The translations under genes and the position numbers were made by a program. From assembly GCA_902793435.1 (NCBI GenBank), contig CADBDF010000001.1, forward strand, positions 69,131-133,130: DNA of 64,000 bases. Reading direction: 5' to 3'. Positions 5,899 through 62,538 of the stretch are shown here, in pieces. Each line of letters opens with the position of its first letter. Positions within the stretch are counted from its first letter, which is position 1. Source of the stretch: an uncultured Pseudomonadota bacterium (GTDB lineage Bacteria; Pseudomonadota; Alphaproteobacteria; Rs-D84). The notes beneath the pieces were generated by a model. That model was not told the DNA's origin. It was given only the letters and a program-made list of their open reading frames with translations, and searched no databases.

Positions 5899-5923
5899 AC
5901 CGGCAAATGCCGGTGTTTTTTTT
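5899..5923. terminator. bidirectional rho-independent terminator
   Basis: Hairpin ACCGGCA-AAT-GCCGGT followed by T9 on the plus strand, with an A-run on the other side. It sits between tRNA-Thr (+) and the minus-strand ORF ending at 5922. Confidence 0.7.
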
Positions 5924-6233
5924 AACTTCTTTGTTTGGTTTTATATTCATTCAATCTGGCATCGGCGCACGATTTACATGCCGCATAAACCAATAATGGC
6001 ATTTGGGATAAATCCGTAATTTTTTCGTTATAATCATTGGCATATCTGTCCCAATATGTTGTTTTATCCATATCTTTTTGGGCGGAACAAAATGTTTTTT
6101 TTGCAGAAAACAAACACACAATTGGAACAGTCCAACACAATATAAATGCCAATACCGCACCAGCAGTCGTGCCACCACAAATCAACGCAAAATTTTTAAT
6201 CTTTAATTTTTGTAATTCTCTATCTTTATTCAT
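5922..6233 (-). CDS. hypothetical small membrane protein
   Basis: 103-aa ORF with one clear hydrophobic span (FALICGGTTAGAVLAFILCWTVPIVCLF). No motif recognised. Confidence 0.45.
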   Translation of the reverse strand: MNKDRELQKLKIKNFALICGGTTAGAVLAFILCWTVPIVCLFSAKKTFCSAQKDMDKTTYWDRYANDYNEKITDLSQMPLLVYAACKSCADARLNEYKTKQRS

Positions 6234-6375
6234 ATCTAATTATCCAGTTTTACATAAAAATAGCATTTTTTTATTACATGTCAATTTTTTATAAAAAAAA
6301 ACTGGAAAAAATCAAAAACATATACTAGTATTCTGGTTATGAACAAAAAACAAATAATTATTATTAAATAAACAG

Positions 6376-6418
6376 CACTGCGCTTTGGCGGTGGCTGGGG
6401 CGCGTAGGCGCTTTTTTT
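6376..6418 (+). promoter_or_regulatory. GC-rich hairpins plus T7 in the ileS 5' leader (terminator-like, possible attenuator)
   Basis: CAGC..CGC-TTTG-GCG..GCTG, then GGGCGC-GTAG-GCGCTT followed by TTTTTTT. This lies 27 nt upstream of the ileS ATG, in otherwise very AT-rich DNA. Confidence 0.35.
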
Positions 6419-6444
6419 AATATAAAAAACAAGGAAAATATAAA

Positions 6445-11065: not shown

Positions 11066-13384
11066 TTATGCTCTTAACTTTGCGTGGCATTTGGTTTCAA
11101 CCGCAGATATTACTTTATTTTGTATTTCAGTTAATTCTGCGTCACCCATATTTTCAGTTGGATAAATCGTGATTGTAAATGCCACAGATTTATTCCCGCC
11201 ACCCATTTCAAATGAATCAAACACCGTCACATCGCCAATACGGCTATCCGCATTGCGCGCCGTCACAATTAAACGTTCCGCCGCAAATTTTGATTCAACA
11301 ACAAATGCAAAATCACGTGTGATTGGTTGAAATTCTGTGATTGGTGTTTTTGCATATTTTGGTGTTTTTGGCAACGCATTTATATCATCAATAATTGCGA
11401 TAACCGTTGGTGCCTTGATATGCAATGCATGGGCTACCGTTGGGTGCAATTCGCCAAATTCAGCAATTTGTTTTTGACCCTGCATAATACGTCCATATTT
11501 ATATGGGTGCGCCCATTTTGGTGCATCACTTTTTTCAACTGTATATTTTTGATTGCCAATCAATTCCAATATATCGTTTTTGACATCAAATACATCTACA
11601 TTACGATTGCGATGCATCCAATGTTTTGGCGATGTCTCCCCAGAACGCACTATGCAAATTTGTGTATGCTGGTTTCCTGGGATATCGCCATCAAATACAG
11701 TTCCTAATTCAAATATATTCATATCTGGAAAACCGCGTTTGATATTTTGCGACAACGCAATCAACTGATTCCCAAGCAGGCAATTACGCATACAATCAAA
11801 ATCAACCGTTATTGGATTAGAAACTTTGATAACAGGTTTTGTGGTTAGCATAGATTCTATTTTCGAATTTCCAAAACCAAACGAAATATTTTCATTTAAT
11901 CCCAAATTCGCCAAACGTTGTTTTAATATCAGGCATGATTTTTCCGCCATGCGTGTCGCACTTTCATTTACAGTTTCAACAACACCTGATAAACCGACCT
12001 TGTCATAACCATAAATACGGATTAAATCAGAAACTATGTTTTCTGGCGCCGTCATATCAACACGCGCGCTGCGTGGTGTGACTGTCCAAATACCGCCTTT
12101 GCCCTCACTGACATTAAATTGCAAAGATTCCAAAATTTCGCGTTGTGTTGCGGGTGCAATATTTATACCGGTTCTTTGCAGGCAAAATGCCGGATTATAT
12201 GCGATTTTATTTGGTGTGACATAATCCATACCTGCGGTCATGACATTTACCAATTTTCCACCACACGCGTCCATAATAATTTGTGCCGCATACGCCAAAG
12301 CAACACCATTAACATTTGGGTCAATTCCGCGTTCATATCTGTATGATGCATCGGTGGATAAACCTAATCTTTTTGCAGTCTTACGAATACCAACCGGTTC
12401 AAAATATGCAGATTCCAAAATTATATTTGTTGTTTCATCGGTTGTCATTGCACGCGCACCACCAACAATCCCGGCCAATGCCAAAATACCTGACAGGTCG
12501 GCAATAACCAAATCTTTATCAGTCAAAACATATTCGTTGCCGAACAAATCACAGAATTTTTCACCGTTTTGTGCAGTACGAACTATGATAGAACCATTGA
12601 CCTTGTCTGCATCAAAACAATGCAAAGGTTGGCCCATGTCATAACATATGTAATTTGTTGCATCGACACATGCGTTTTTAGGATTTATACCAGCAGCAAT
12701 CAATCGATTTGCAATCTTTGGTTTTGATGGCGCGTTTTTAATTCCATGAATTTCCGCCATACGATATGTTTGGCAACGGTCTGACATAATTTGCACAATT
12801 CTGTCGCCAGGCATATCTTTTAAAATCTCTGGTGTTTTTGCAATATAACGTCCAGAGCCACATGCCGATAAATCCAGCGCAATTCCGCGAACTGCCAAAA
12901 AATCCGGACGATTTGGTGTTATACCTGTATCGAAAATAGGACTGGCATTAAATCCAGAAATTGCCGAACCAATTTTTGTGTCTTCTGGTAATTCCATAAT
13001 TCCACTGTGGTCAGGTCCTAAACCTAATTCTTTTTCACTGCACATCATACCGTCACTCAATACACCACGCAGTTTGCCAGATTTAATTTCAACACCACCA
13101 ATTATGCACCCCGGACGCGCCAACGCAGAAATTAACCCAACGCGAACATTTGGCGCACCACAAACAACCTGGCGCGGTGTGTCTGTGCCATCATCGACCA
13201 TTAATACATGTAAATGGTCACTGTTTTCATGTGGTTTTACCGATATAATACGCGCAGCAATCGGTGGAACAGGGGCGATAAAATCTTCGACCTCTAACCC
13301 GGTGCGATTTAATGTTTCAGCAATTTGTTCAGGCGAATTTTCTGTATCCAAATATTCACGCAACCATTCATAAGACCATTTCAT
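11066..13384 (-). CDS. pheT: phenylalanyl-tRNA synthetase beta subunit
   Basis: 772 aa. N-terminal MKWSYEWLREYL, typical of PheT, with a tRNA-binding domain. Lies immediately downstream of pheS. Confidence 0.9.
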   Translation of the reverse strand: MKWSYEWLREYLDTENSPEQIAETLNRTGLEVEDFIAPVPPIAARIISVKPHENSDHLHVLMVDDGTDTPRQVVCGAPNVRVGLISALARPGCIIGGVEIKSGKLRGVLSDGMMCSEKELGLGPDHSGIMELPEDTKIGSAISGFNASPIFDTGITPNRPDFLAVRGIALDLSACGSGRYIAKTPEILKDMPGDRIVQIMSDRCQTYRMAEIHGIKNAPSKPKIANRLIAAGINPKNACVDATNYICYDMGQPLHCFDADKVNGSIIVRTAQNGEKFCDLFGNEYVLTDKDLVIADLSGILALAGIVGGARAMTTDETTNIILESAYFEPVGIRKTAKRLGLSTDASYRYERGIDPNVNGVALAYAAQIIMDACGGKLVNVMTAGMDYVTPNKIAYNPAFCLQRTGINIAPATQREILESLQFNVSEGKGGIWTVTPRSARVDMTAPENIVSDLIRIYGYDKVGLSGVVETVNESATRMAEKSCLILKQRLANLGLNENISFGFGNSKIESMLTTKPVIKVSNPITVDFDCMRNCLLGNQLIALSQNIKRGFPDMNIFELGTVFDGDIPGNQHTQICIVRSGETSPKHWMHRNRNVDVFDVKNDILELIGNQKYTVEKSDAPKWAHPYKYGRIMQGQKQIAEFGELHPTVAHALHIKAPTVIAIIDDINALPKTPKYAKTPITEFQPITRDFAFVVESKFAAERLIVTARNADSRIGDVTVFDSFEMGGGNKSVAFTITIYPTENMGDAELTEIQNKVISAVETKCHAKLRA

Positions 13385-26384: not shown

Positions 26385-26675
26385 ATGAGACAGCAAGTTT
26401 TAAAAGCTTTGGCAAATCCGCCGCGTATTTTTTACGTGCCATATTCGTTGGCCGTAATCAATTTTGTCGTGCAATTTGTTGCTTTTATTGCAATTTATGT
26501 CGTTTCTTTGGTCTTTTTTGGGTATGATATCAGCCCGGTTATTTTTCTGTTATCTGTGATGTTTGTTCATATGGTTTTGGCAATATATTCCAGGCGCGAC
26601 CCACAAATAGGCCAGATTTTATCCGCAAGAATACAACTTTTTAAACACAAGGTTCCACAAAGATTACCAGCATGA
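26385..26675 (+). CDS. virB3: type IV secretion system protein VirB3/TrbD-like
   Basis: 96 aa. LKALANPPRIFYVPYSLAVINFVV followed by two TM segments, which is the VirB3 pattern. ATGA overlap with virB4. Confidence 0.6.
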   Translation: MRQQVLKALANPPRIFYVPYSLAVINFVVQFVAFIAIYVVSLVFFGYDISPVIFLLSVMFVHMVLAIYSRRDPQIGQILSARIQLFKHKVPQRLPA

Positions 26676-29095
26676 TAGATTATAACCAAATTTTTGAATA
26701 TTTTGCCGGCAGTAGTGATTTTCCAATCACACTGACTGTGTTGGTTATGGTTGTTGTGGTTGTTTTTATTGCTTTGATGTTATATCTTCCTGTTTTAACG
26801 CGAAAAATTTTTCCTAAATTTGGGTATAGTTCATATTCTGACTATTTGCCTTTTAAAAATGTTAAAAAAGACAATACTTTGGTTTTAAATGATGATTCTG
26901 TGGTCAGGGTTTATCATTTAGATGGTGTCCAAACGGGCTTGCAAGATGATGAAACACGTGCAAGATTTTTAGATTTGCGTGCCAGTTTGTTTAATCAAAT
27001 CAAAGACCCAAATGTCGTTTTGCGGTTTTTTACCACCAGAGATGCTGTAAATGAAAATGTTAATTATGAATTTCATCAGCCAACTTTACAGATGATTTAC
27101 GATAAGTGGAAAAACCAGGGTTTAAAGATTTTTTCTAATAATTATTATATTGTGATTTCTGTATCAGGTGCAGATGCAACCGAAAAGTTAAATCAATGCT
27201 GTAATTATATTGAATCAATGTTTGCGGGTTATAAACCTAAATTGTTAAAAAATGATGATAAATATAATATGGCACGGTTTTTTGGCCGGATTTTATCGCC
27301 TGTGACAAAACCAGAACCGGCGGTTGCGGATAAAAATATTGCAAATTTAGTGACGGTTGATGATGTTGAATTTTTACAATCTGGGTTTATTAAATATGAA
27401 AGTGGTGGTAATACAAAATATGCGGCGGCGATTTCTTTCAAAATTGCACCTGATTATTTGGACGAAGAATTTTTTATAAATGTATCAACAATTCAAACAG
27501 AAATGATTTGTATGAGTGGTTTTCGTATTATGGGGGTTGCTGATGTTGCAACGGCTTTGCGTCAAACACAATCAACAATGGACGAAAAACACGAAGAATC
27601 AACCATGGAACAATTAGATGCCGCGGAAAGTATTATGGACGAAAATGTTTCTGGAAATCAAAGTTTGGTTAATTTTTATCCTTTGTTTATGTTGTTTGCG
27701 GATACAGTAGAAGATTTGGAAAAATATGTTGCAGAATTTAAAAAAATATCGGCTTCATTTGGGGTTTCGCCTGTTGTTGAAACATTTGCGTCACGTGTTT
27801 CTATGTTTTCTATTATTCCGGGGTTTGATGTTTTCCCACGCAGTTTTAAATTGTTATCAAAAACGGCTGCGATATCAATTCCTATGGACGCGGTGCCACG
27901 TGGTCATGCAAACAGCGATTGGGGCCCGGGTCCATTGGTTGTTTTCCCAACAGCCCAGGGAACACCATATCAATTCCAATTCCATGTTTCAGATGCGCCG
28001 GTGGCGGTGGGGCATAGTTTAACAATTGGTCCAACCGGTGGTGGTAAAACAACACTTTATTCATTTTTAATTGCACAATCATTGCGTCATCAAAAATTAA
28101 AAGCGTTTTTCTTTGATAGAAATAAAGGTGCCGAAATATTTACTTTGGCGGTGGGTGGTAAATATATCACTATGCAGGGACGCGACAAAAAAGCCGATGA
28201 AAACGAAAAATCTTTTGAAACACACTTAAATCCATTAAAAATGGCTGATACGGTTGCAAATCGTGCATTTTTGCGTCGTTGGTTTGCTATGATTTCCGGG
28301 CAAAATGATGCGGCATCGGCGGACGAAATTGCACGTGCGGTATCGGTTAATTTTGATTATTTGGCTGATAAAGACAGAAAGTTAAAAAATTTGTGGGAAA
28401 GTTGTTTTTCGTCCAGTGGTAATATGCGGCCTGCGTTAAAAAAGTGGGTTGATGATTTGCAATATGGCGATATGTTTAATGAAGATAGTGATACTTTGGA
28501 TTTACAATCCAGACTTACCACTTTTGATTTTACAGATATTTTGCAAGACCCTGATTTAGCGCCGGCGGTTATTTCATATATTTTACACAGAATTAATAAT
28601 ACAACTGTTTCTGGTGGAAATCCGTCTTTGATTATGATTGACGAAACCGCACCTATGTTGGAAAACAAAATGTTCCGCGATAATTTTATTACAGGTCTGC
28701 AAGAAGGTCGTAAAAATCGTCAGGCATATATGGTGGCTTTCCAACGCGCAAATGTTTTGGATAAATTAGGTATCGGTGATGTTGTTCGTGGTCAGGCACA
28801 AACAGTGTTATTTTTCCGGAATCCTGCGGCAGATGTCGCGGATTATGAACACTGGAAATTAAATCCGTTGGAAATGGCGTTTATCCAAGGTAAAGCATAT
28901 CCTAATTTAAAACGCGCGGTGTTGTTGTCGCGTCCGGTCACAGGGGAATCTGTTATTTTAAATACAGAATTAGGTGGTTTGGGTAATTTATTAAGGTTAT
29001 TTGAATCTGGGCGTTCATCGGTTTTATTGGCCGAGGAATTATATAAACAATTTGGGAGTGGTTTTGTCGAAGAATACTTAAAGAAAAATGTATAA
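26672..29095 (+). CDS. virB4: type IV secretion system ATPase VirB4/TrbE family
   Basis: 807 aa. N-terminal TM segment, Walker A GPTGGGKTT, Walker B-like LIMIDETAP. Size and layout match VirB4/CagE. Confidence 0.85.
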   Translation: MIDYNQIFEYFAGSSDFPITLTVLVMVVVVVFIALMLYLPVLTRKIFPKFGYSSYSDYLPFKNVKKDNTLVLNDDSVVRVYHLDGVQTGLQDDETRARFLDLRASLFNQIKDPNVVLRFFTTRDAVNENVNYEFHQPTLQMIYDKWKNQGLKIFSNNYYIVISVSGADATEKLNQCCNYIESMFAGYKPKLLKNDDKYNMARFFGRILSPVTKPEPAVADKNIANLVTVDDVEFLQSGFIKYESGGNTKYAAAISFKIAPDYLDEEFFINVSTIQTEMICMSGFRIMGVADVATALRQTQSTMDEKHEESTMEQLDAAESIMDENVSGNQSLVNFYPLFMLFADTVEDLEKYVAEFKKISASFGVSPVVETFASRVSMFSIIPGFDVFPRSFKLLSKTAAISIPMDAVPRGHANSDWGPGPLVVFPTAQGTPYQFQFHVSDAPVAVGHSLTIGPTGGGKTTLYSFLIAQSLRHQKLKAFFFDRNKGAEIFTLAVGGKYITMQGRDKKADENEKSFETHLNPLKMADTVANRAFLRRWFAMISGQNDAASADEIARAVSVNFDYLADKDRKLKNLWESCFSSSGNMRPALKKWVDDLQYGDMFNEDSDTLDLQSRLTTFDFTDILQDPDLAPAVISYILHRINNTTVSGGNPSLIMIDETAPMLENKMFRDNFITGLQEGRKNRQAYMVAFQRANVLDKLGIGDVVRGQAQTVLFFRNPAADVADYEHWKLNPLEMAFIQGKAYPNLKRAVLLSRPVTGESVILNTELGGLGNLLRLFESGRSSVLLAEELYKQFGSGFVEEYLKKNV

Positions 29096-32002: not shown

Positions 32003-32797
32003 ATGGTGAAAAAATATATGTCAAAGTTTAAAAAATATGTTATTGAACCTATTGTTAGTTCGGCGCCTGTGCAATGGTTTGTTGCGGGGTTTGCCGTTTT
32101 TGTTGTATTTTTAATTTATATTACATGTTGTAATCATGTGCGTAATAAACGCATTTTGCGCGAATATCGTAAAAAACCGGCTGTATTTGTGGTGTGGCAT
32201 GGGCGAACAATGGTGCCCAGTGTGATTATGTTATTGTATCGCATGCGGTCTTGTGCCGTTGCCAGTCGCCATAAAGATGGCAGGTTGATGGCAAAAATTC
32301 AACGGCTGTTTGGTGCAACCGCCATATACGGCAGTACTTCGTCCGGTGCGGTATCTGTTCTGCGCGAGGGTGTGCGTGTTTTGCATAACGAGGGTCGTTG
32401 TATTGTTATGTGTCCAGATGGCCCCAGTGGTCCGTCTTTGAAATTGCAAGACGGGGCAATGTATTTTGCAAAAATGGCAAATGTGCCAATTATTCCGGTT
32501 TGTTTTTCTTCGTCTAAATCATGGTTTCAAACTCGTTGGGACAGGTATTTGGTGACTTTGCCGTTTGCGAAGACTATTGTTGATGTGGGTGAGCCTATTT
32601 TTGTGAAATCAAAAATTAAAACCGAGGCTTTTGAAAAAGAACGCGAAAAAATTGAAAGAATTTGTGTAAAACAAATGCGTGATTTGGACAAGATTTTTAA
32701 CCTGATGCATGTTGAAGAAGGTTTGACCGCGACTGATTTTAAACGCAAATTGCGCGAGGCGAAAAAATTAGAAAAAGCAAAATTGAGAAAAAAATAA
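32003..32797 (+). CDS. DUF374 (lysophospholipid acyltransferase-like) protein
   Basis: VVWHGR...ASRHKDGRLMA...GSTSSGAVSVL...CPDGPSGP, the DUF374 pattern seen next to kdtA/lpxK. Followed by lpxK with a 1-nt overlap. Confidence 0.65.
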   Translation: MVKKYMSKFKKYVIEPIVSSAPVQWFVAGFAVFVVFLIYITCCNHVRNKRILREYRKKPAVFVVWHGRTMVPSVIMLLYRMRSCAVASRHKDGRLMAKIQRLFGATAIYGSTSSGAVSVLREGVRVLHNEGRCIVMCPDGPSGPSLKLQDGAMYFAKMANVPIIPVCFSSSKSWFQTRWDRYLVTLPFAKTIVDVGEPIFVKSKIKTEAFEKEREKIERICVKQMRDLDKIFNLMHVEEGLTATDFKRKLREAKKLEKAKLRKK

Positions 32798-33717
32798 TGA
32801 AAACACCTTATTGGTTTTTGCATAAATCTTCACTTGCGTTGGCTTTGTTGCCAATGTCGGGGCTGTATTGGTTGGCTAATAAATTTGTAATGTGGCGACG
32901 CGCAAAAAATCCGTATGTATCGCGTCGTAAAATTATTTGTGTTGGTAATGTTTTGGCGGGAGGTGTTGGTAAAACACCGATTGTTCGTCAAATTGCTGAA
33001 TTTTTAGATGCGCCGGTTGTTATGCGTGGTTATAAAAAATCAAACAAGACAAATGGTGTTGGTGACGAGGCTTTGATGTTGGCGCGATATGGTTTAAATG
33101 TTCATACAGGCGACAGAAAAAGTAATATTGTTTTATTAAATAAACAAAAATCAAATACACCAATTGTTATGGACGATGGATTTCAAAACCTGTCAATAAA
33201 TAAAGATATTTCTGTGGTTGTTATTGACGAGGCTTTGGGTTTTGGTAATGGTTTTTTGTTGCCTGCGGGCCCAATGCGCGAAGGGCGGTCTGGGTTAATG
33301 CGGGCTGATGCAATTATTATTGTGCGCGCAAATAAAAAGAATACAAAGTTGCCAGATTTAAAATTGCCGTCAAATATTCCGGTATTTTATGCAGAAAATA
33401 CAACCTTATCGCCATATGATGAAGATGAAAAATTGGTTGCGTTTGCGGGAATTGGATATCCAGACAAATTCTTTCATCAATTAAAAAATGTTGTTTATAA
33501 AAAATCTTATGCTGACCATTATCAATATACAGAACAAGATATCAAAGATTTATTAAATTTGGCAGATAAAAAAAATGCTAAATTGGTGACAACGGAAAAA
33601 GATTGGGTGAGACTCCCACAAAATGTGCGTGATGAAATCAAGTTTGCTGCGTTAGATACCAAGATTGATAAAATGTTCTTTAACTGGTTAGAGGAAAAAT
33701 TAAATGGCAACCTTTAA
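32797..33717 (+). CDS. lpxK: tetraacyldisaccharide 4'-kinase
   Basis: VGNVLAGGVGKTPIV P-loop, typical of LpxK. 306 aa. Confidence 0.85.
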   Translation: MKTPYWFLHKSSLALALLPMSGLYWLANKFVMWRRAKNPYVSRRKIICVGNVLAGGVGKTPIVRQIAEFLDAPVVMRGYKKSNKTNGVGDEALMLARYGLNVHTGDRKSNIVLLNKQKSNTPIVMDDGFQNLSINKDISVVVIDEALGFGNGFLLPAGPMREGRSGLMRADAIIIVRANKKNTKLPDLKLPSNIPVFYAENTTLSPYDEDEKLVAFAGIGYPDKFFHQLKNVVYKKSYADHYQYTEQDIKDLLNLADKKNAKLVTTEKDWVRLPQNVRDEIKFAALDTKIDKMFFNWLEEKLNGNL

Positions 33718-34642
33718 GAAAAAATTTTCTATTTCGGGTCATGGTATTCACAGTGGAAAACCTGTCACAATGGTTATTAAACCGTCCAAGGTTTCAGGAA
33801 TTGTTTTTCATCGTGTGGATTTAGATAAAAAGTTCGATATACCTGCTATATATTCAAATGTGGGTGAAACAAAAATGCGTAATACCACAATTGGAAATAT
33901 GGGCGCACCACATGTGCAAACAATTGAACATTTTATGGCTGCGTTGATGTTGGTTGGTGTTGATAGTGCAATTGTTGAAATAGATGGTCCGGAAACACCG
34001 ATACTGGACGGCAGTGCGGCTGATTTTATGGAAAAATTTTTATCGGTTGGTGTTGTTGGAAAAAAATTAAAACGCATAATTGTTAAACGCGAAGTTGTTG
34101 TTAATTCGCGTGAAGCAAAAAAGAATATTTCTAGAATTGAAAGATTAAAATTTTGGGTTATAAACAAACTGGCTGGGCGGAAAACTGATGGGTTTGTAAA
34201 GTTAATGCCAAATGATGGACGTGGTTTAAATGTGACGGCAACCTTGGTTTATCCTGAAAAAATTATTGGTGACCAAAGTTTTTCCTATTTGTTTGATGGC
34301 ACAAAAAAGTCACAGAATAATTTTATTAAAAATGTTGCGCATGCACGCACTTTTGGAAAAATTTCAGAGTGGGAAGTTTTAAAAAAACATGGTATGGCAC
34401 ATGGTGCAAATGAACATAACGTTATCGTTGTTAATGCCAAGGGTGATGGGGTGTTAAATAATCTGTATTGGGAAAATGAATTTGTGCGTCACAAAGTAAT
34501 AGATGCGTTGGGCGATATGTTTTTATCTGGGGGAATTATTGTTGGTGATTTGGTGTCGTTTAAAGGTAGTCATGCGTTAAATAATCTGGTTTTAAGAAAA
34601 TTGTTTAGCGACCCAGAAAATTACGAAATTGTTGAAAAATAA
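33704..34642 (+). CDS. lpxC: UDP-3-O-acyl-N-acetylglucosamine deacetylase
   Basis: GHGIHSGKPVTMVIKP, TIEHFMAAL and DGSAADF, with the HKVIDALGD His/Asp motif. 312 aa. Confidence 0.92.
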   Translation: MATFKKKFSISGHGIHSGKPVTMVIKPSKVSGIVFHRVDLDKKFDIPAIYSNVGETKMRNTTIGNMGAPHVQTIEHFMAALMLVGVDSAIVEIDGPETPILDGSAADFMEKFLSVGVVGKKLKRIIVKREVVVNSREAKKNISRIERLKFWVINKLAGRKTDGFVKLMPNDGRGLNVTATLVYPEKIIGDQSFSYLFDGTKKSQNNFIKNVAHARTFGKISEWEVLKKHGMAHGANEHNVIVVNAKGDGVLNNLYWENEFVRHKVIDALGDMFLSGGIIVGDLVSFKGSHALNNLVLRKLFSDPENYEIVEK

Positions 34643-34668: not shown

Positions 34669-35016
34669 ATGAAAAAATTGTTTTTATGTGGTGTTGTCTG
34701 TGTTTTGGCGGCGTGTAATAATACAGTAAAGCCTGAATCTAGTGCTGATAATTTGATTGTTGTCGATACAAAACCAACAAATTGTGTTTATTTGTATAAA
34801 ATGAGTGCCGAGGCAGAATTTTATTCCCATGATGATGCAATTCAATATTTAAAAAATCAAATTGTGAAAAGTGGTAAGTCTGGAAATGTTGTTTGGTTAG
34901 AGGTTGATGATAAACAACAAAAGTCATGGGTGATGTTTGGACCAGAATATAAATATAATATGGTTGCGCATGTTTATGATTGTGGTGCCAATTTTGAAAA
35001 TTCAAATAAAAAATAA
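34669..35016 (+). CDS. small lipoprotein, unknown function
   Basis: Lipobox VLAAC after MKKLFLCGVVC. 115 aa. Directly upstream of the pilus-like module. Confidence 0.5.
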   Translation: MKKLFLCGVVCVLAACNNTVKPESSADNLIVVDTKPTNCVYLYKMSAEAEFYSHDDAIQYLKNQIVKSGKSGNVVWLEVDDKQQKSWVMFGPEYKYNMVAHVYDCGANFENSNKK

Positions 35017-35039
35017 AAACAATATTGGTTATTATCTGT

Positions 35040-35069
35040 TTGCCAAAGATTATCTTTTTTTGGTATAAT
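35040..35069 (+). promoter_or_regulatory. putative sigma70 promoter of the pilO-R-like operon
   Basis: TTGCCA (35040-35045), an 18-nt spacer, and an extended -10 TGgTATAAT (35061-35069). Confidence 0.5.
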
Positions 35070-35093
35070 TATCCGCAGGAGAGATGAAATAAA

Positions 35094-36416
35094 TTGTTAG
35101 ACACAGTTATTGGCGCTTTTTTCAGTTTTTTATTCAACAAATTGTTCGGGTTTGGTGATAAGACATTGTCTAATTTGTTGCGTGTAAATAAAAAACGTTT
35201 TGCCGCGGGGTTGTTTTGGCAACCGGTTGCGGTTGGGTACAGTGCAAAAAATTATGCGCGCGTTTTAACAAAAAATTCCAAGGTTAAAGCAAATTTATTT
35301 GTTGAATATCGGTCTATGGTTGGTTTGGCACCAAAGCATCGCGGTTTTTATGCGGGTATGCCATCTGCGGCCGCAGAAATTGTTGATACGTTGGCTGAAT
35401 ATTCTTCGTTCTTGGCGGTTTTTGTTGTTGATAAAAAATATTATTTGTTGGCTGTGCGTAATGGTATTATTTTGGCTGATAAATTATATACTGACGAGGC
35501 GGATGCGCGTGCGGAATATGCACGATTTTCAAAAATTCCTGATTGGACCGCTTTTATTGCGCCAAATTCGTGGGGAATTCCGCGTGCGTCGGCGCGTGAT
35601 TTGAATACTTTATTGCCACGCAAAACAAAATATAATTTACGTGCAATCAGTCGTTGGGCACCGATTGTGTTTTCTGTAATTATGTTTTTGATTTTCTTTG
35701 GTGCGTTGTATTTTATCTTTCGCGAACCAATTAATAAAATTACGGCACCAAAAAAAGTTGAATTGGACCCTGAATTAGTTGCGGAATACAAACGTCAGGT
35801 CGAAGAAAAAAATAAAGAGTTAGATGCAGAATTTAATATTCAAAAAGAAGAAGTTAAACCACTGGTTTTACCATATACAAATTTGCCAGAACCAATGGCA
35901 CGTGCAAAGCAATGTTATCAGGCAATTGGATTTTTAATGCAGCCGGTGACCGGATGGGCGCAATCAAATGTTGTTTGTGATGAAACACGTGCAACAGCTG
36001 AATTTAACAGAAAATTTGGATCATTGGACGGTTTTTATTCTGTGGCGGCGGATTTTTTACCTGGGGCAGATGTTGTTGAAATAGATGACAATACTTTGAG
36101 TGTTAGTGTTGCTTTGCCAAATATTGAACATGTGGCGTCTTTGGACGAACGCGATGCTGAAACAATTGAACGTAATGTTGTTAGTTTGTTTCAAACGGCG
36201 CATATGGACGCAAAAACAAAGATTGTTGTTGATACATTAACCAATGGTGTTGATACGGCAAAATTAAACATTGTAGAAATTGCGGTTAATTCAAAATTAT
36301 TGCCAATGCAATTTACAAAAATGTTTGAAAATTTTGGTGGTGTATATGTCACGCGTTGTGCGTGGAATGCAATATCACGAAATTGGAACTATGAGGTTAT
36401 AATCTATGCAAAATAA
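35094..36416 (+). CDS. type IVb pilus biogenesis protein, PilO-like (R64/PAPI-1 PilO2 family, tentative)
   Basis: 440 aa with a TTG start. N-terminal ...RFAAGLFWQPV... and a central TM segment (WAPIVFSVIMFLIFFGALYFIF). The assignment rests mainly on size and position upstream of PilP/PilQ/PilR-like genes, as in R64 (PilO is about 430 aa). Confidence 0.4.
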   Translation: MLDTVIGAFFSFLFNKLFGFGDKTLSNLLRVNKKRFAAGLFWQPVAVGYSAKNYARVLTKNSKVKANLFVEYRSMVGLAPKHRGFYAGMPSAAAEIVDTLAEYSSFLAVFVVDKKYYLLAVRNGIILADKLYTDEADARAEYARFSKIPDWTAFIAPNSWGIPRASARDLNTLLPRKTKYNLRAISRWAPIVFSVIMFLIFFGALYFIFREPINKITAPKKVELDPELVAEYKRQVEEKNKELDAEFNIQKEEVKPLVLPYTNLPEPMARAKQCYQAIGFLMQPVTGWAQSNVVCDETRATAEFNRKFGSLDGFYSVAADFLPGADVVEIDDNTLSVSVALPNIEHVASLDERDAETIERNVVSLFQTAHMDAKTKIVVDTLTNGVDTAKLNIVEIAVNSKLLPMQFTKMFENFGGVYVTRCAWNAISRNWNYEVIIYAK

Positions 36417-37152
36417 AATTAAATTGTTTGGTTTGTTGTTCGGCGTATTTACGTTATGTGTTATGCCAAATGTGTCGTATGCGGACGATGATTTCGAAGA
36501 ATTGGTCGAAGAAGATTCTTTTGATTATTTGACCGATGATGCGGCAAAAGATTTGTCGGCTATGTCTGTTGCAAATTACGATGTTGATGGGTCTGTGTTT
36601 CAAAAAATTACAGATTTAGAACAACAAAAAGTTTTGATGGAATTGGAAAAAGAACGCGCACAATTAGATTTAGATTTGGATAGATTGGCGGCTGAAAAAA
36701 TTAAACTGCAAATGGAAATGGATACTTTGTCTGGGCGTGCAGAACAAGAACAACAGATTTTGCAAAACGAAAAAGCAAAATTAGAAGCCGAGGCTGCGCG
36801 TATAGAAGCCGAGAAAAAGGCTTTGATTGCGGCGGCAGAAAATGAAACATATGCGGCACCTGTGGTGACGGGTTCTGCCAAGAAATCGTCTGTTGCAAAA
36901 AAGAAACCTGTGGTGGAAGAAAACCAAGATGAAGATTGGGTTGATATTTCGTCTTTATATAAATTGGTAAATGTTATGGGTGCCGGAAATCAGTTGCAGG
37001 CAACATTGTCTGATTTGGAAACTGGGCAAACAAAACGCGTGACGGTTGGTAAAAAAATCAATGGTTTTGTTGTGAAATCTATATCGTTGGAAGACGGTGT
37101 TGTGTTTAGTAAAGATGGTGAAACACAAAATTTAAATATATCAAGTCGGTAA
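36406..37152 (+). CDS. PilP-like periplasmic pilus assembly protein (tentative)
   Basis: Signal peptide, an acidic region, a long coiled-coil, and a C-terminal beta domain LQATLSDLETGQTKRVTVGKKINGFVVKSISLEDGVVF like the PilP C-domain. Overlaps both neighbours. Confidence 0.4.
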   Translation: MQNKIKLFGLLFGVFTLCVMPNVSYADDDFEELVEEDSFDYLTDDAAKDLSAMSVANYDVDGSVFQKITDLEQQKVLMELEKERAQLDLDLDRLAAEKIKLQMEMDTLSGRAEQEQQILQNEKAKLEAEAARIEAEKKALIAAAENETYAAPVVTGSAKKSSVAKKKPVVEENQDEDWVDISSLYKLVNVMGAGNQLQATLSDLETGQTKRVTVGKKINGFVVKSISLEDGVVFSKDGETQNLNISSR

Positions 37153-37156
37153 TAAA

Positions 37157-38779
37157 ATGAGTAAAGATACAGAAAATTTAACCGCATTAAAACCGTCTGT
37201 GCCAGCCGGCATGGAAGGTGCCGAAATAAAAGAAATCATTGATTATTTGTTTTCTAATGGTAATCGTTTATTGACGGCGACTGGGGCAAAAATGGAATTA
37301 TCCAAAGATGTCCAAAGTTTGATTGCGTATTTTTCTGGGGGTGAAATTATTGTTTCGCGAACACATAAATATGATGGTCGTGTGTTGGCTTTTATGGATT
37401 TGTTGCGCGAACGTGGTATGAATTATCGGGAACCGTTCTATTCCGATTTAGGTTTGGTGTCGGCGATATATAAAACATACGAAGAAAGGTTGGGTTCTGG
37501 GGCGCGTCAAAGAAATGATTTCGACAACCAAATGCAGAAAGATTTTGTCGATATTATTGCACGTGCGGCGGCACAAAAGGTTAGTGATGTGCATATCGAG
37601 GTGGCTGACCAGACAACAATTTATTTCCGTATAGATGGTAGTATGCAACCTGTGTTGGAATATAATTCTGGGTGGGGTGAATCTTTTGTTAGAGCGGCCT
37701 TTGCATCGGCGGATATTTCAAATTCAAACTATGCACAAAATGAATATCAATCTGCCCAAAAAGATGGCAGAACACCATTGCGTGGAACGCGTGATTTATA
37801 TTTGCCTGCGGGTGTCACCAGTATTCGTATGCAGTTTAATCCAATCGCGTATGGAACGCGTTATGTTGTTATGCGATTGTTGTATGATAATCCGTCAGAA
37901 GGTATTAAAACAGAACAAGAATTTGGTGAATATGAACAAAGGTTGTTAATGCGTCTGCGTTCGTATCCAACAGGTTTGGTTATTGTTGCGGGTCCAACCA
38001 GTTCTGGTAAATCAACGACATTGGTTCGCAATATGTCGATGATGTTAAAAGAACGTAATTATGAAATAAATATGATTACGGTGGAAAATCCGGTTGAACA
38101 AAAAATTTTTGGCGCACATCAAATGCCTGTCGTAAATGCTATGAACGAAGAACAACGCGATGAAAAATATACCGAGGCTTTGGCGGCGGCATTGCGTAGT
38201 GACCCGGATACATTGATGGTTGGTGAAATTCGTACTTTGGCGGCGGCGCAATTAACGGTGCGTGGTGCGTTGTCGGGGCATAATGTTTGGACGACTTTGC
38301 ATGCGAATTCTGCGATGGCGGCTTTGACACGATTGTTGGATATGGGTATTGAAAGTTTTAAATTAAAAGATGAAACTTTGATGCGTGGTTTGGTGTCTAT
38401 GCGGTTGTTTAAAAAACTGTGTCCGCATTGTCGCGAGGCTTTATCGAATCACCCAGAACATTCGGCATATTCGCGTGTGATGGATGCGTTTGGTGAAATT
38501 GGATTAAAACAAGTTTTTATTAAAGGTCCAGGTTGTAGCGAATGTAATGGTTCGGGCACCATTGGGCGTATCAAGGCCGGTGAAATCATTATCACAAACA
38601 GTGAGTTTTTGCGGATTGCATTGGCGGGAAATACCGATATGGCGGTTAAATATTGGTTGGAAGAAATGGATGGGCGCACATTAAAGGAATCTGCCGCAGA
38701 GTTAATGTTGCGTGGTATTATTGGTGTTGATGAATTAGAACGTTGGGTTGGATTGTTGGACAGACCAGGGGAATATTAA
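37157..38779 (+). CDS. GspE/PilB-family secretion ATPase (R64 PilQ-like)
   Basis: Walker A GPTSSGKST, Asp box, Walker B DTLMVGEIR, His box GHNVWTTLHAN, and the tetracysteine CPHC...CSEC. 540 aa. Confidence 0.88.
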   Translation: MSKDTENLTALKPSVPAGMEGAEIKEIIDYLFSNGNRLLTATGAKMELSKDVQSLIAYFSGGEIIVSRTHKYDGRVLAFMDLLRERGMNYREPFYSDLGLVSAIYKTYEERLGSGARQRNDFDNQMQKDFVDIIARAAAQKVSDVHIEVADQTTIYFRIDGSMQPVLEYNSGWGESFVRAAFASADISNSNYAQNEYQSAQKDGRTPLRGTRDLYLPAGVTSIRMQFNPIAYGTRYVVMRLLYDNPSEGIKTEQEFGEYEQRLLMRLRSYPTGLVIVAGPTSSGKSTTLVRNMSMMLKERNYEINMITVENPVEQKIFGAHQMPVVNAMNEEQRDEKYTEALAAALRSDPDTLMVGEIRTLAAAQLTVRGALSGHNVWTTLHANSAMAALTRLLDMGIESFKLKDETLMRGLVSMRLFKKLCPHCREALSNHPEHSAYSRVMDAFGEIGLKQVFIKGPGCSECNGSGTIGRIKAGEIIITNSEFLRIALAGNTDMAVKYWLEEMDGRTLKESAAELMLRGIIGVDELERWVGLLDRPGEY

Positions 38780-38783
38780 ACGC

Positions 38784-39854
38784 ATGGAAAAATTAGAAAT
38801 TTTATATGCAAAAATGGTGTTCAAATTGAATACCGACAGACGATTGGCGCTGATACGAAAATTGGCGTCGTTGTTGCGTAATAATTTTTCTTTGATGGAC
38901 GCGTTGAGTCGTATAGAAGATATTGAATCTAAAAATGGACGAAAACCCGATGAACCCTTTGCTATTGCGATGCGTATGTGGCAAAAAAATCTGGAAATGG
39001 GACTTAGTTTTGCAGATGCTACGCGTGGTTGGTTGCCTGATTCCGAAATTTTGTTGGTGACATCTGCAAATGTGACAGATTTGGTTATTTCGCTTGAAAA
39101 TCTGGATAGGGTGGTAAATGGTATTACCAAAATAAAACGCGCAATGCGTAATGCGATTGCGTATCCTTTGTTTTTGTTGGCTTTGACATTTGGTATTATT
39201 GTTATGGTTGGTGTGTATTTGGTGCCACCATTGGCATCGGTTGCGGGTCCAAATGTTGTTTTTGGTGGTGCCGCTGGGATTTTAATTACTGTGTCACAGT
39301 TTTGTATAAATTATTGGCATGTTATTGTTGGATTTATGTTGGTTGTTATTTTCTTGGTTTGGGCAAGTTTGGCAAATTGGCGTGGGGGGTTGCGGACTTT
39401 GTTTGATGTTTTGCCACCATGGAGTATTTATAAAATGTATGTGTCGGTTGGTTGGATGATGTCTTTGTCGGCGATGGTGCGTGCGGGTGTTGCGGTGCCA
39501 GATGCAATGCGGACATTGGCAGATAATTCAAACGGATATTTGCGTGATATTTTGGAAAATACTTTGCGGTATATTGCAAATGGTGATAATTTAGGTGTTG
39601 CATTGGATAAAACAGGGCGCGAATTTCCAAATGATGAAATTATCGGCGATTTGACTATATATTCTGAAATGAACGATTTTGGTGAAAATATATCGCGTGT
39701 GGCAAATGATTATTTGGTAAATTCTGTGCGCAAAATGGAGGCTGTATCATCAACATTAAACAGTGTTGGTATTTTGTTGGTGTCGATTATTATTGCGTGG
39801 GTTGTGTTGGCTACTTTCCAAATGCAAGACCAAATTACTATGATGTTATCGTAG
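38784..39854 (+). CDS. GspF/PilC-family inner-membrane platform protein (R64 PilR-like)
   Basis: About 357 aa. Two repeated cytoplasmic T2SSF-type domains separated by TM segments. The ATG at 38784 lies 5 nt after the ATPase stop; the ORF-track start at 38748 overlaps the ATPase. Confidence 0.75.
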   Translation: MEKLEILYAKMVFKLNTDRRLALIRKLASLLRNNFSLMDALSRIEDIESKNGRKPDEPFAIAMRMWQKNLEMGLSFADATRGWLPDSEILLVTSANVTDLVISLENLDRVVNGITKIKRAMRNAIAYPLFLLALTFGIIVMVGVYLVPPLASVAGPNVVFGGAAGILITVSQFCINYWHVIVGFMLVVIFLVWASLANWRGGLRTLFDVLPPWSIYKMYVSVGWMMSLSAMVRAGVAVPDAMRTLADNSNGYLRDILENTLRYIANGDNLGVALDKTGREFPNDEIIGDLTIYSEMNDFGENISRVANDYLVNSVRKMEAVSSTLNSVGILLVSIIIAWVVLATFQMQDQITMMLS

Positions 39855-40116
39855 GGTACCCAAAAAATTTTTCAAATTTTTCGGGGCCCGGGAAACTGCC
39901 CCGTCTTGCAACTGCGTTGTAATCCACCCCTTCTTTTTTGCTTATGCAATAAAAGACGGGGAATTAATAGGGTGTGGTGCTTTTTGTAAAACCCCCTCCC
40001 CACAGGGGCGGAATAACCCCCTCCACCCGCTTTCGCTTCGCTTCAGCGAGGTTCCCCTCCCCAAGCATCACCCACGAAAACTATGTTTTCGCGGGGCCCG
40101 ATTGGGGCGGAATTCC
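39855..40116. repeat. GC-rich, non-coding, internally repetitive block
   Basis: About 50% GC in an AT-rich genome. Repeated CGGGGCCCG (x2), CCCCTCC (x3) and GGGGCGGAAT / GGGGAAT (several). Nested inverted repeats such as CCCCGTCTT...AAGACGGGG. Only junk ORFs. Confidence 0.6.
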
Positions 40117-40283
40117 ACACCCCGTCGCTTATATGCTTTTTGCCCGCCTACGCTAGTGCTTAATTGCACAAAATGGATTAATTTCAAATTATTAATACTT
40201 TTCGCCGAATGCGTTGGCTACGGCGCGGCACTCAATTTTCAATCCTCAACAAAAGTTTCGGTGAAAATTGGTGGGGCGGAATA
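40117..40283 (+). repeat. left copy of a ~165-bp imperfect direct repeat
   Basis: Aligns with 41748-41913. Identical blocks are TATATGCTTTTTGCCCGCCT, GCTACGGCGCGGCACTCAATTTTCA and TCGGTGAAAATTGGTGG. Contains a conserved hairpin CAATTTTC...GAAAATTG with a variable loop. Confidence 0.85.
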
Positions 40284-40292
40284 AAAAATATT

Positions 40293-40321
40293 TTGGTTTT
40301 GGGGTGGTTTTATGCTATAAT
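40293..40321 (+). promoter_or_regulatory. putative promoter of the repeat-flanked gene
   Basis: TTGGTT (40293-40298), a 17-nt spacer, and an extended -10 TGcTATAAT (40313-40321). AAGGAG lies 7 nt before the ATG at 40348. Confidence 0.5.
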
Positions 40322-40347
40322 TTATGTGTTAATAAAAGGAGATTTTT

Positions 40348-41643
40348 ATGCCGGATTTTAAATTTGATTTGGAAACATTTGTTCGCGCGTATATGGATTT
40401 AAAAAAAGAGTGGCAAAATGGGTCCAGAGCTTGTTATGAATTTTGGGACTCTGTTACCCGTGCTATGAATAATAATGATTCAAATGTTAGTGTCAATAAA
40501 GTGTTGGGGGATTATAGAGATATAAAATCTGGGACTGTGAAAAATGTGTTGAAATATATGGACGATGTAAAGGGAAAGCCAGAGGCAAGAGATGTCACAA
40601 ACACAATTCAATTTGTGGCGGAACAAGTGTTTTTCCCAAAACAAAATAGAAAGAGTTTTGATGATAATCTATATTATGATAATACAACATATATGCAGAT
40701 GTTTTTAAATAGAATGAAATCTTTTAAAGATAAACAACTGGTGTATGATGTATTAAAACAGTTTCAAAGTTTTTCAGGATATTATCAAAAACCAGCAGAG
40801 GAAGTTTATAATAATTCTGTCAAAAATCCTGCGAAAGCCGGTGTGTATAAAGATATTGCAACAATGTTGGCAAATAATGAAAATGCAACATTGGAGGATA
40901 TCGCAGAAATGATTTATTTTGTTGAAACACCAGACGAGGCTTTGAAAATTATAAATGATGTTTTCGCTAGAACAGATGAAATTTTAGACAAAGAATTAAG
41001 TAAAGATGTGCCAGGGACAGAAAGGGTTAGAGATATTTTGGCCCAACCATCGTCTGTTGTGAATAAGGTATTAAATTTAAATCAATTAAACCCAAGTTTG
41101 CAGAAAATTTTAAATGTTCGCGATGGGTCCAATGATGAATTCTTTAATCAATTAAAACAATGGTCACAGATGGCAAATAATAAATATGACTTTAATAAAG
41201 TTATTGGGTCTGGTGATGCACAATATGTCACAAATTATGAAAATACATTGGAACAAGAAAATATCGATTTAACAAATCAAAACGAAGAGTTAAAGAAAGA
41301 AAAAGGTGCGTTGGAACAATCCAGAAACCAATTTCGTGATAATTTCGACAGAGAAAAATTGCTGAATAAAAAAATGGAACAAAGATACAATGATGAACGC
41401 GCGGCAAGAATATCTGTGGAAAAAATGTTGCAAAAAGCTTTGGATGTTATTGCAGCGTATGAAAGGGGCAATCAAGAAATTGACAAGGCTGGTGTGTTTA
41501 ACAAAGCCGCGGCAAAGGTCAAAATGAAGGAAGAAGTCGAAAATGCAAAAGATGAACTGAAACGCGCCGAGGCCGAGGAAAAAAAACGTATGGCAGAATT
41601 GGTGGCACGACAAAAGGCAATGGGTGAAGCAATCAGTATTTAA
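40348..41643 (+). CDS. hypothetical protein with a C-terminal coiled-coil
   Basis: 431-aa ORF with its own promoter, RBS and terminator (41649-41675). The last ~130 aa are heptad-like and Glu/Lys-rich. No signal peptide and no catalytic motif recognised. Confidence 0.5.
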   Translation: MPDFKFDLETFVRAYMDLKKEWQNGSRACYEFWDSVTRAMNNNDSNVSVNKVLGDYRDIKSGTVKNVLKYMDDVKGKPEARDVTNTIQFVAEQVFFPKQNRKSFDDNLYYDNTTYMQMFLNRMKSFKDKQLVYDVLKQFQSFSGYYQKPAEEVYNNSVKNPAKAGVYKDIATMLANNENATLEDIAEMIYFVETPDEALKIINDVFARTDEILDKELSKDVPGTERVRDILAQPSSVVNKVLNLNQLNPSLQKILNVRDGSNDEFFNQLKQWSQMANNKYDFNKVIGSGDAQYVTNYENTLEQENIDLTNQNEELKKEKGALEQSRNQFRDNFDREKLLNKKMEQRYNDERAARISVEKMLQKALDVIAAYERGNQEIDKAGVFNKAAAKVKMKEEVENAKDELKRAEAEEKKRMAELVARQKAMGEAISI

Positions 41644-41747: not shown

Positions 41748-41913
41748 CCACCCCGCTGTTTATATGCTTTTTGCCCGCCTGCGCTAGTTTTTAATTTCAA
41801 AGAACAAATTATTTCAAATTATAAATATTTTTTGTTGAACGCGTTTGCTACGGCGCGGCACTCAATTTTCAGCCCTTTGGCTACGCCTCGGTGAAAATTG
41901 GTGGAGGGGAATT
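41748..41913 (+). repeat. right copy of the ~165-bp imperfect direct repeat
   Basis: See the left copy at 40117-40283. It ends exactly at the stop codon of the minus-strand gene 41913-42482. Confidence 0.85.
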
Positions 41914-61224: not shown

Positions 61225-62538
61225 ATGAAACGTTTTTTATTGTATGCTTTGGCTGTCGTTATATGTGCGGGGTGTCAAAACGCAAAAAATGTTCCACAAT
61301 ATGAAACAGTCCAGGTTGTTGAAAATATGGTCATAGATGAAAAGTCTGTGCCAATATTTCCAAAAAAAGCCGCTTTGACTACGGATACGGCGCAAAGATT
61401 TTCTGTGGAATTGCCTATGCGTTGCACTGTTGATTGGAATAATCAATCTGTTGTGTCGGTTGTGCCGGCTGAAAAAATTGAAATTGTGCGATTGGGATTG
61501 GGTGATGCGTTGCCAGAATTGACTGTCAGTGAATATAAGTTCAAAGATGTGACTGTGGCGGCGGCGTTAAATAAATTGTTGGACGGAACAGATGTGTCCG
61601 TTGTTGCAGATGAACAGTTGGTTGAAAAAATATCTGGCGAGGTTCAATCTGGCAGTTTGGCGGATACGGTTGATTTGATTGCGAAAATGGGACGCGCATA
61701 TTATTCGTATGATGCGGTGACGGCAGAAATTCATTTGCAACATCGCGCAAAATGGATGATTAAAATGCCAAAAGATGAATCTATAATTATGGCTTTGTTG
61801 GACGCGATGCATGGTGCGGATGTGCGGAATTTGTTGGTAAATTGGCAAGATAAAACCGTCGTGTTCGAAGGTGATGCGCAAACAGAACGCGAAGTATCCA
61901 GAATTATTGCGGATATTGCGTCTAAAAAATATATGATTGCATGGGATATGGACGTGTATCGTGTTTATCCAAAGACAGATAATCCAATTATATGGATGAA
62001 TTTGTTGCCTGCGTTTGGAAAAAATAATATTAAAATGTCTATACCGGGTGTTGTTGGTCGTGCGTTGGTTGTGGGGCCAGAAATAAATACAAAAACTTTG
62101 CAGGAATTTTTGGCGCAACAATCAAATGTTGTATTGATTTCACAAGGGACTTTTTCGATTCCAAATGGTTGGCAGTCACGATTTGATATCGGTCAATGCA
62201 GTAAAGAAGACAGATTGGAAACAGATTTAGTGATTGGGGCAACTGGTCGTTATGGTGATTATGGCGGTTATCAAAAAATAGATGCCAAAATAGTTTTAAC
62301 AACAAAGTATGGTGAATTGACTTCATTTAATATACCGTCCAGTGTTGGTGATAATTATGTGATTGTTGGTATTCCTACGCATTCTTTTGTGACAACCCCA
62401 GAAACATTGATTAGTCCTTTTGCAGAATTGGTTGTGTTTATGTCACCGCGGTTGGTGTCGATTGTTGATGATGTTAAACCAAAATCTGGTGAAGCATTAT
62501 TGGTTGGTGACGATGTGCGTGAGTTGTTAAATAATTAA
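61225..62538 (+). CDS. secretin-like outer-membrane lipoprotein (type IVb pilus PilN/BfpB-like, tentative)
   Basis: Lipobox VICAGCQ. The C-terminal ...VGDNYVIVGIPT...SPFAELVVFMSPRLVSI resembles the secretin C-domain end (G....viGG.....eLlifitPriv). At 437 aa it is shorter than R64 PilN. Confidence 0.42.
   Translation: MKRFLLYALAVVICAGCQNAKNVPQYETVQVVENMVIDEKSVPIFPKKAALTTDTAQRFSVELPMRCTVDWNNQSVVSVVPAEKIEIVRLGLGDALPELTVSEYKFKDVTVAAALNKLLDGTDVSVVADEQLVEKISGEVQSGSLADTVDLIAKMGRAYYSYDAVTAEIHLQHRAKWMIKMPKDESIIMALLDAMHGADVRNLLVNWQDKTVVFEGDAQTEREVSRIIADIASKKYMIAWDMDVYRVYPKTDNPIIWMNLLPAFGKNNIKMSIPGVVGRALVVGPEINTKTLQEFLAQQSNVVLISQGTFSIPNGWQSRFDIGQCSKEDRLETDLVIGATGRYGDYGGYQKIDAKIVLTTKYGELTSFNIPSSVGDNYVIVGIPTHSFVTTPETLISPFAELVVFMSPRLVSIVDDVKPKSGEALLVGDDVRELLNN

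Follow-up and report, generated by a model that had tools for sequence, protein, structure and literature searches.

Dispersed chromosomal genes for a probable type IVb pilus of the R64 thin-pilus variant in Candidatus Enterousia (Alphaproteobacteria, Rs-D84)

A stretch of 64,000 nucleotides (hereafter the window; contig CADBDF010000001.1, positions 69,131 to 133,130) was analysed from assembly GCA_902793435.1, a genome of 898 kb in 15 contigs, 97.8% complete, that belongs to Candidatus Enterousia in the GTDB order Rs-D84. The nearest public records are rumen and gut metagenome-assembled genomes, among them RUG14746 (ATPase identity 99%), and many are labelled Candidatus Enterousia. The window carries four consecutive genes, at positions 35094-39854, whose products resemble inner-membrane and periplasmic parts of a type IVb pilus such as the thin pilus of plasmid R64. 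The module is chromosomal and its surroundings are housekeeping genes, as an earlier note on this DNA, made from the sequence, had described: DUF374-lpxK-lpxC lie upstream (window 32003-34642) and gyrB begins downstream at window 42535. The features of the locus, in window coordinates, are the following.

35040-35069, plus strand: predicted sigma-70-like promoter between the lipoprotein gene and pilO (TTGCCA, 18 nt, TGgTATAAT; 11/12 consensus, extended -10)
35094-36416, plus strand: PilO2/BfpC-like bitopic protein, 440 aa (PF06864; one transmembrane segment)
36406-37152, plus strand: PilP-like periplasmic protein, 248 aa (TIGR03021 just under its cut-off; signal peptide)
37157-38779, plus strand: 540-aa extension ATPase of the type IVb pilus (class of R64 PilQ and BfpD; T2SSE)
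38784-39854, plus strand: inner-membrane platform protein of the GspF/PilC family (PilR of R64), 356 aa (two T2SSF domains)
34669-35016, plus strand: 115-aa lipoprotein (lipobox LAAC); its membership of the pilus is not established

The listing of open reading frames (ORFs) and the family scans agree with the earlier note on the coordinates of the four genes and on the good promoter ahead of them. The promoter is purely a consensus match read from the sequence, and is followed by AGGAG and a TTG start codon at 35094. A mini-ORF of three codons (ATG AAA TAA) fills window 35085-35093, after the Shine-Dalgarno sequence and just before the TTG with which pilO starts. The four genes had been taken to overlap and so to be translationally coupled; a true overlap, of 11 nt, was found at the pilO/pilP junction, but the other junctions are gaps of 4 nt, as from pilP to the ATPase gene. 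The platform gene most likely starts at ATG 38784, 4 nt past the ATPase stop, since the alignments of relatives begin only at residue 13; the alternative TTG at 38748 would give a protein of 368 aa.

Searches against protein families and structures indicated what the four products are. The PilO-like protein matched PF06864 (PAP_PilO) at 45.4 bits, against a cut-off of 26.7, and is built of a cytoplasmic actin-like N-domain, a single central transmembrane segment at about residues 188-210 and a periplasmic C-domain. A profile of its order-wide homologues, searched against the PDB, matched BfpC (3vhj, E 9.6e-9) and 4byz/4bz0 (E 2.5e-10), which we take to be the N-domain of Burkholderia pseudomallei PilO2 (PilO2Bp). 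That N-domain has an actin-like fold, as does BfpC, and the protein is counted among the machinery of an 'R64 thin pilus variant' (PMC3984277). The PilP-like protein has a Sec signal peptide and, besides an acidic stretch, a long coiled coil; it ends in a beta domain, and its gene occupies the pilP position of the IncI1, IncI2 and Bosea clusters, directly after PilO2. The first two proteins fall with PilO, over the cut-off, and with PilP, just under it, and not with unrelated families.

The third protein matched T2SSE at 213 bits and carries Walker A (GPTSSGKST), Walker B, a His box and the tetracysteine motif CPHC...CSEC, while the two T2SSF domains of the platform protein scored 76.8 bits. 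Genome-wide there is one ATPase of the PilB/GspE class and one T2SSF gene, that of the platform, both within the window. The homology and order PilO-PilP-PilQ-PilR proposed in the earlier note are supported by these family matches, by comparison with the IncI clusters, by the PilO profile and by the ATPase tree.

Among solved structures the best relative of the ATPase is BfpD (8dze), with 266 bits over the full length; GspE gave 154, PilF 151 and PilB 126 bits in the same PDB search. A maximum-likelihood tree was constructed from GspE and PilB sequences drawn by NCBIfam models, the PilQ proteins of IncI1, IncI2 and Enterobacter, the Bosea ATPase and the Rs-D84 ATPases; TcpT, BfpD and other virulence-pilus ATPases are not in the tree, and BfpD was compared through the PDB search only. 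The tree showed that the Rs-D84 ATPases are monophyletic (99/99), sister to the type IVb ATPase of a Bosea plasmid (84/85) and outside the clade of GspE and PilB (97/94). Of the grouping with type IVb ATPases that the earlier note had anticipated, the place beside a plasmid type IVb ATPase and the separation from GspE were recovered, but the relation to IncI PilQ came out as a root trichotomy of IncI PilQ, Bosea plus Rs-D84, and GspE plus PilB, with a long-branched PilT-like outgroup. The tree agrees with published work in which type IVb pilus (T4bP) ATPases branch basal to the PilB and GspE of type IVa pili and type II secretion systems (PMC6668835).

Two other classes of machine were considered and rejected. 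For a type II secretion system the best NCBIfam match of the ATPase, GspE TIGR02533 with 215 bits, is far under the equivalog cut-off of 630 bits, and the ATPase lies outside the GspE clade; the accessory genes found are of the PilO2, PilP, TcpQ and PilV types and not GspC/L/M, although no direct search was made for GspC/L/M or pseudopilins. For a Tad/Flp (type IVc) pilus the TadA-type model TIGR03819 gave 35 bits only, and the platform is a single two-domain protein of the GspF type, not a TadB/TadC pair. Because TadA-type models score so low, the label 'TadA' carried by close ATPase homologues in public records is wrong.

The published MacSyFinder model of the T4bP (Denise et al. 2019) has pilB, pilC, pilA, pilD and pilQ as mandatory components and allows several loci (PMC6668835). 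All five are present in the genome, as extension ATPase, platform, pilin, A24 peptidase and secretin. The earlier note had described a module without pilin, peptidase or secretin; this is true locally, but these genes are present on other contigs or at a distance on the same contig, as follows.

Contig 8, 40109-40606, minus strand: A24 prepilin peptidase (PF01478, 54.8-56.9 bits), the only one in the genome
Contig 4, 218-1846: PilN-type lipoprotein secretin (PF00263, 51.9 bits; lipobox LTAC), single in the genome
Contig 4, 1890-2750: TcpQ-domain protein (PF10671, 64.9 bits), directly upstream of the secretin
Contig 1, 11973-12431: small pilin, 152 aa (N_methyl 22.6, cut-off 21.2; TIGR02532 18.4, cut-off 16.3)
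Contig 2, 11549-12037: small pilin, 162 aa, with a class III signal peptide
Contig 1, 5899-8486: large pilin-like (PilV-like) genes, two by motif scan; the run of three genes extends to 9834

The pilin scan covered the whole genome and looked for a G-x4-E motif plus a hydrophobic helix. Both small pilins exceed the N_methyl and TIGR02532 cut-offs, and two small-pilin paralogues per genome were found across the genus. The PilV-like gene at contig 1, 5899-7215 matched Shufflon_N (PF04917) at 29.0 bits against a cut-off of 27.5. The secretin begins with a lipobox, as do PilN, BfpB and TcpC. The A24 peptidase is short, 166 aa, and is without the N-terminal domain, the frames of other families having 220-320 aa. 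Since the five mandatory parts are present together with a single ATPase and a single platform, the set is not incomplete and the module in the window is not redundant; the redundant paralogue of a complete locus elsewhere, which the earlier note had considered, was not found, there being only one such ATPase and platform in the genome.

Three secreted proteins of 348, 235 and 715 aa follow the A24 gene on the same strand (G000 C8:36171-40606, equal to L009:4172-8607, minus strand). They were rejected as pilins, having ordinary Sec signals and neither a class III motif nor a family match. A 437-aa lipoprotein in the window (61225-62538) was likewise rejected as a secretin: it gave a 17-bit STN match and no BLASTP similarity to the secretin of contig 4. 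In one relative (L096:10847-12172) a homologue of this 437-aa lipoprotein lies directly after the platform gene.

Conservation was counted over 30 'good genomes' of the order, 41 relatives, six families and 80 loci of the genus. The PilO-like protein is present in 39/41 relatives, in 30/30 good genomes and in all six families. The remaining parts are conserved to a similar degree: secretin and small pilin were each found in 30/30 good genomes, PilV-like proteins in 29/30 and the A24 peptidase in 27/30. In the five other families tcpQ-secretin-pilO-pilP-ATPase-platform form one contiguous cluster, which we take to be the ancestral arrangement. In the genus of the window the secretin pair lies about 135-145 kb from the core operon where both are on one contig, and the order lpxC-lipoprotein-pilO-pilP-ATPase-platform is identical in all 80 loci. 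Against the nearest relative (dS 0.15-0.39) the ratio of nonsynonymous to synonymous substitution (dN/dS) was lowest in the ATPase gene, at 0.017, and rose through pilO (0.064) and the platform gene (0.088) to 0.118 in pilP; all four genes are under strong purifying selection. In one genome of family f2 (G025) there were 15 small-pilin matches, several of them in tandem, an expansion of the pilin genes.

Carriage on a conjugative plasmid or an integrative and conjugative element (ICE), with the pilus stabilising mating pairs, was rejected on the fixed chromosomal site between lpxC and gyrB in 80/80 loci and on the vertical pattern, with its monophyletic ATPases. In a class-wide sample of 301 alphaproteobacterial genomes, PF06864 exceeded its cut-off in at least 33, many of which are small; the figure is a minimum, as a first look based on Pfam missed two genomes of the same genus. 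The thin pilus is therefore not unique to Rs-D84. Several families with genomes of 1.1-2.5 Mb carry PF06864 in every sampled member (loci L140-L145).

We consider, with a probability of roughly 0.8, that the four genes at window 35094-39854 form a core operon, for the inner membrane and periplasm, and belong to a complete, chromosomally dispersed type IVb pilus in its R64 thin-pilus/PilO2 variant. Judged from the genes, it appears to be a working, vertically inherited system and neither a relic nor a minimal machine. Several results weigh against this assignment. The C-terminal domain of the PilP-like protein matched TIGR03021 (pilP_fam) with E 8.8e-8 and 33.2 bits, under the cut-off of 34.65; a comparison with IncI PilP by hhalign gave E 1.4e-4 and a probability of 53% over the C-terminal 57 columns, a weaker homology than that of the other core parts. 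The top NCBIfam model of the secretin, TIGR02520 (PilN, type IVB), scored 240.6 bits, under its equivalog cut-off of 287.65, and the PilS domain matches of the two pilins, 19.7 and 18.1 bits, are under the 22-bit cut-off. The leaders of the small pilins are of about 6 residues (MTNESG before a mature start RSLIEM, MKQESG before RSMIEM), short and type IVa-like, and the pilins are of about 150 aa, whereas classical type IVb pilins have leaders of 15-30 aa and a mature length of about 190 aa. A single-sequence search found the A24 peptidase in 0/4 genomes of family f2, and a genome-wide search of the ATPase family found no retraction ATPase. PilM (PF07419) gave no match in a search whose control also matched nowhere. 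Finally, the adhesive role proposed below draws on PilV homology and on the lifestyle described in PMC12306168.

Assembly of a pilus from these parts, and its purpose, we infer by homology with R64, the bundle-forming pilus (BFP) and the toxin-coregulated pilus (TCP). The A24 peptidase of contig 8 would trim the short leader from both PilS-like pilins and from the three large PilV-like pilins. The PilO2/BfpC-like protein, through its actin-like domain in the cytoplasm, would tether the ATPase, presumably a hexamer, at the membrane, and the ATPase would power the polytopic platform protein, so that pilins are inserted into the growing fibre. The PilP-like protein may bridge the inner-membrane complex and the secretin, a lipoprotein of the PilN type. 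The secretin and the TcpQ-domain protein, both of contig 4, would form the outer-membrane channel, and the PilV-like proteins would be adhesins at the tip of the fibre. The use of such a pilus is most likely to attach a partner-dependent cell to the surface of a host or partner; DNA uptake through the same secretin is a possible additional role.

Comparison with R64/IncI1 and IncI2 plasmids (pSE69-3861-1, pD90-2) revealed the same gene order and similar sizes, PilO2 having 431 aa against 440 here, the ATPase 517 against 540 and the platform 361 against 356; the ATPases are about 27-30% identical. The IncI plasmids carry pilL and pilN directly upstream of pilO, where the Rs-D84 relatives have genes for a TcpQ-domain protein and for a lipoprotein secretin of the PilN type. 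Large PilV-like (Shufflon_N) pilins and an A24 peptidase are also common to both. In R64/IncI, however, the genes form one plasmid operon, while those of Rs-D84 are chromosomal, vertically inherited and spread over at least five loci. The PilP-like protein here is longer, 248 aa as compared with about 150 aa in R64/IncI, and has a long coiled coil; the small pilins here have short leaders, and there are three separate PilV-like genes in place of the one R64 gene with a shufflon (no search was made for a shufflon recombinase or sfx repeats).

The closest ATPase found outside the order is that of plasmid pBSY19_1 of Bosea sp. RAC05 (NZ_CP016463.1), with 35.6% identity over 97% of the length. Bosea is also alphaproteobacterial, and its layout, tcpQ-secretin-pilO2-(gene in the PilP position)-ATPase-T2SSF with pilV nearby, is that of the other Rs-D84 families; its cluster differs in lying on a 709-kb plasmid and in having, directly after the platform gene, a PilT-like second ATPase that the searches did not find in Rs-D84. 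With the BFP of enteropathogenic E. coli, sequences were compared through the PDB search only: BfpD is the best structural match of the ATPase, the BfpC N-domain resembles that of the PilO-like protein, and both systems have lipoprotein secretins. The BFP itself is encoded on a plasmid, acts in virulence and has the retraction ATPase BfpF. In the episymbiotic Saccharibacteria, which have reduced genomes, type IV pili have been shown to drive host binding (bioRxiv 10.1101/2024.11.25.624915). The parallel is a functional analogy only: in both cases small partner-dependent cells keep type IV pili, but the Saccharibacteria are an unrelated lineage with a monoderm-type envelope and another pilus class.

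The 115-aa lipoprotein gene lies directly upstream of the module, as the earlier note had it, and adjoins pilO throughout the genus. It begins 26 nt past the lpxC stop, has its own Shine-Dalgarno sequence and precedes the pil promoter, and we take it to belong to the end of the lpx genes and not to the head of the pil operon. The protein has, besides the LAAC lipobox, two more invariant cysteines; its AlphaFold model (mean confidence, pLDDT, 80) gave a weak RcsF-like match (E 5.8e-3, TM 0.44-0.48). A search of five genomes of other families found one homologue, in an unrelated context. With no family match, this weak fold match and an out-of-family homologue elsewhere, it was rejected as PilM or pilotin and is not counted in the system.

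Downstream, the earlier note took the module to stop abruptly at a GC-rich repeat block where pilS, pilT, pilU and pilV would be expected. The block (window 39855-40347) consists of units of about 100 nt and about 104 nt that recur at no fewer than 8 other sites, on contigs 1, 2, 3, 5, 9 and 13, and look like dispersed elements of the miniature inverted-repeat transposable element (MITE) or repetitive extragenic palindromic (REP) kind. It is followed by a 431-aa ORF (o431, window 40348-41643) with no family match, and imperfect direct repeats of about 165 bp flank o431 at 40118-40283 and 41749-41913. Among 80 related loci o431 occurs in 6, always between the platform gene and o189, and in the other 74 the platform gene runs straight to the o189-gyrB genes. 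On this distribution o431 is a variable insertion cassette and not a replacement of distal pil genes. The block was rejected as the scar of lost pil genes, given the 74/80 loci without insertion and the genome-wide dispersal of its units; it replaces nothing.

Genes of a VirB-type type IV secretion system (T4SS) are scattered over the genome: VirB3/B4 lie at window 26385-29095, and VirD4, VirB10 and VirB11 at G000 C1:30341-31897, C3:93534-94142 and C3:10753-11088. VirB6/TrbL was not detected in the genome with PF04610. The nearest plasmid relatives of VirB4 are alphaproteobacterial (about 31-32% identity) and stand, in Microvirga and Erythrobacter, in an ordinary P-type conjugation cluster that has no genes of a type IVb pilus, and linked inheritance of the T4SS and the type IVb pilus was rejected.

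The alternatives to the pilus proposed above differ in how much of it they keep. The same machine may mainly be a competence pilus that feeds ComEC and DprA and scavenges DNA for nucleotides or genes, a reading that differs in function only and that we hold possible but doubtful. The order is reported to lack nucleotide biosynthesis (PMC12306168), and the genome has this one type IV filament system. ComEC (contig 7, 35941-36768; 178.7 bits, 671-aa frame) and DprA (contig 2, 1579-2199; 208.5 bits) are kept in only 898 kb, which suggests that DNA uptake matters to the organism; both genes are, however, common in bacteria not known to be competent, control genomes matching in 11 and 12 of 14. The three PilV-like adhesin genes suit adhesion better, the genome-wide lack of a detectable retraction ATPase speaks against competence, and the VirB-type T4SS could itself serve DNA uptake, as the ComB T4SS does in Helicobacter. 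Type IVb pili are not known to drive transformation, for which the established cases involve type IVa or Com pili. Rather unlikely, in our estimate, is a domesticated conjugation-style contact apparatus as the core organelle of an episymbiosis, in which the pilus with its three fixed PilV-like adhesins would dock a specific partner, bacterium or protist, and the scattered T4SS and/or ComEC would move material. If true, this would be a parallel, among proteobacteria, to the episymbiosis of Saccharibacteria, which depends on pili.

The earlier note itself offered two readings without a pilus. That the ATPase and platform form a minimal machine, whether as a piston of the type II kind or in support of the VirB-type T4SS 6 kb upstream, seems to us very unlikely. 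GspE is indeed the best NCBIfam match of the ATPase, but at 215 bits it remains well under its cut-off, the ATPase lies outside GspE plus PilB, and the accessory proteins are those of a thin pilus (with the limit on GspC/L/M given above). Type IVb pili such as the TCP also export a soluble factor (PMC9565799), and IncI2 plasmids carry both a VirB-type T4SS and a thin pilus of type IVb. The T4SS genes here are present and likewise scattered; yet in 74/80 loci virB3/B4 are only loosely syntenic with the operon and otherwise not fixed in place, the pair being inverted in some, and the nearest plasmid VirB4 relatives have no adjacent type IVb pilus genes. Hardly credible is a decaying remnant of a plasmid or ICE thin-pilus cluster that has lost pilS-pilV. 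Next to the platform gene there is a repeat-rich block and, locally, no gene for a pilin, peptidase or secretin, but the block with o431 is an insertion seen in 6/80 relatives, its units are dispersed genome-wide, and the 'missing' genes are present at other places in the genome and conserved to the same degree. At least 30 genomes, from six families, carry all four genes intact. Because the module is conserved order-wide and its dN/dS values are 0.017-0.118, we exclude the degraded system that the earlier note thought possible.

Rs-D84, including Enterousia, has been described as a group of partner-dependent Alphaproteobacteria with genomes of less than 1 Mb and without flagella, in a study that mentions type IV pili for a different lineage only (PMC12306168). 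Our literature search found no paper tying Enterousia or Rs-D84 to a type IV pilus. The type of machine is already known; new are the lineage and its status as a chromosomal, dispersed core system. Rs-D84 and Enterousia are common in gut and rumen and are proposed to depend on partners, without a described contact organelle, and a conserved pilus with PilV-like adhesins is a concrete, testable candidate for cell attachment. The R64-type thin pilus, usually seen as cargo of plasmids and ICEs, can be a vertically inherited core trait.

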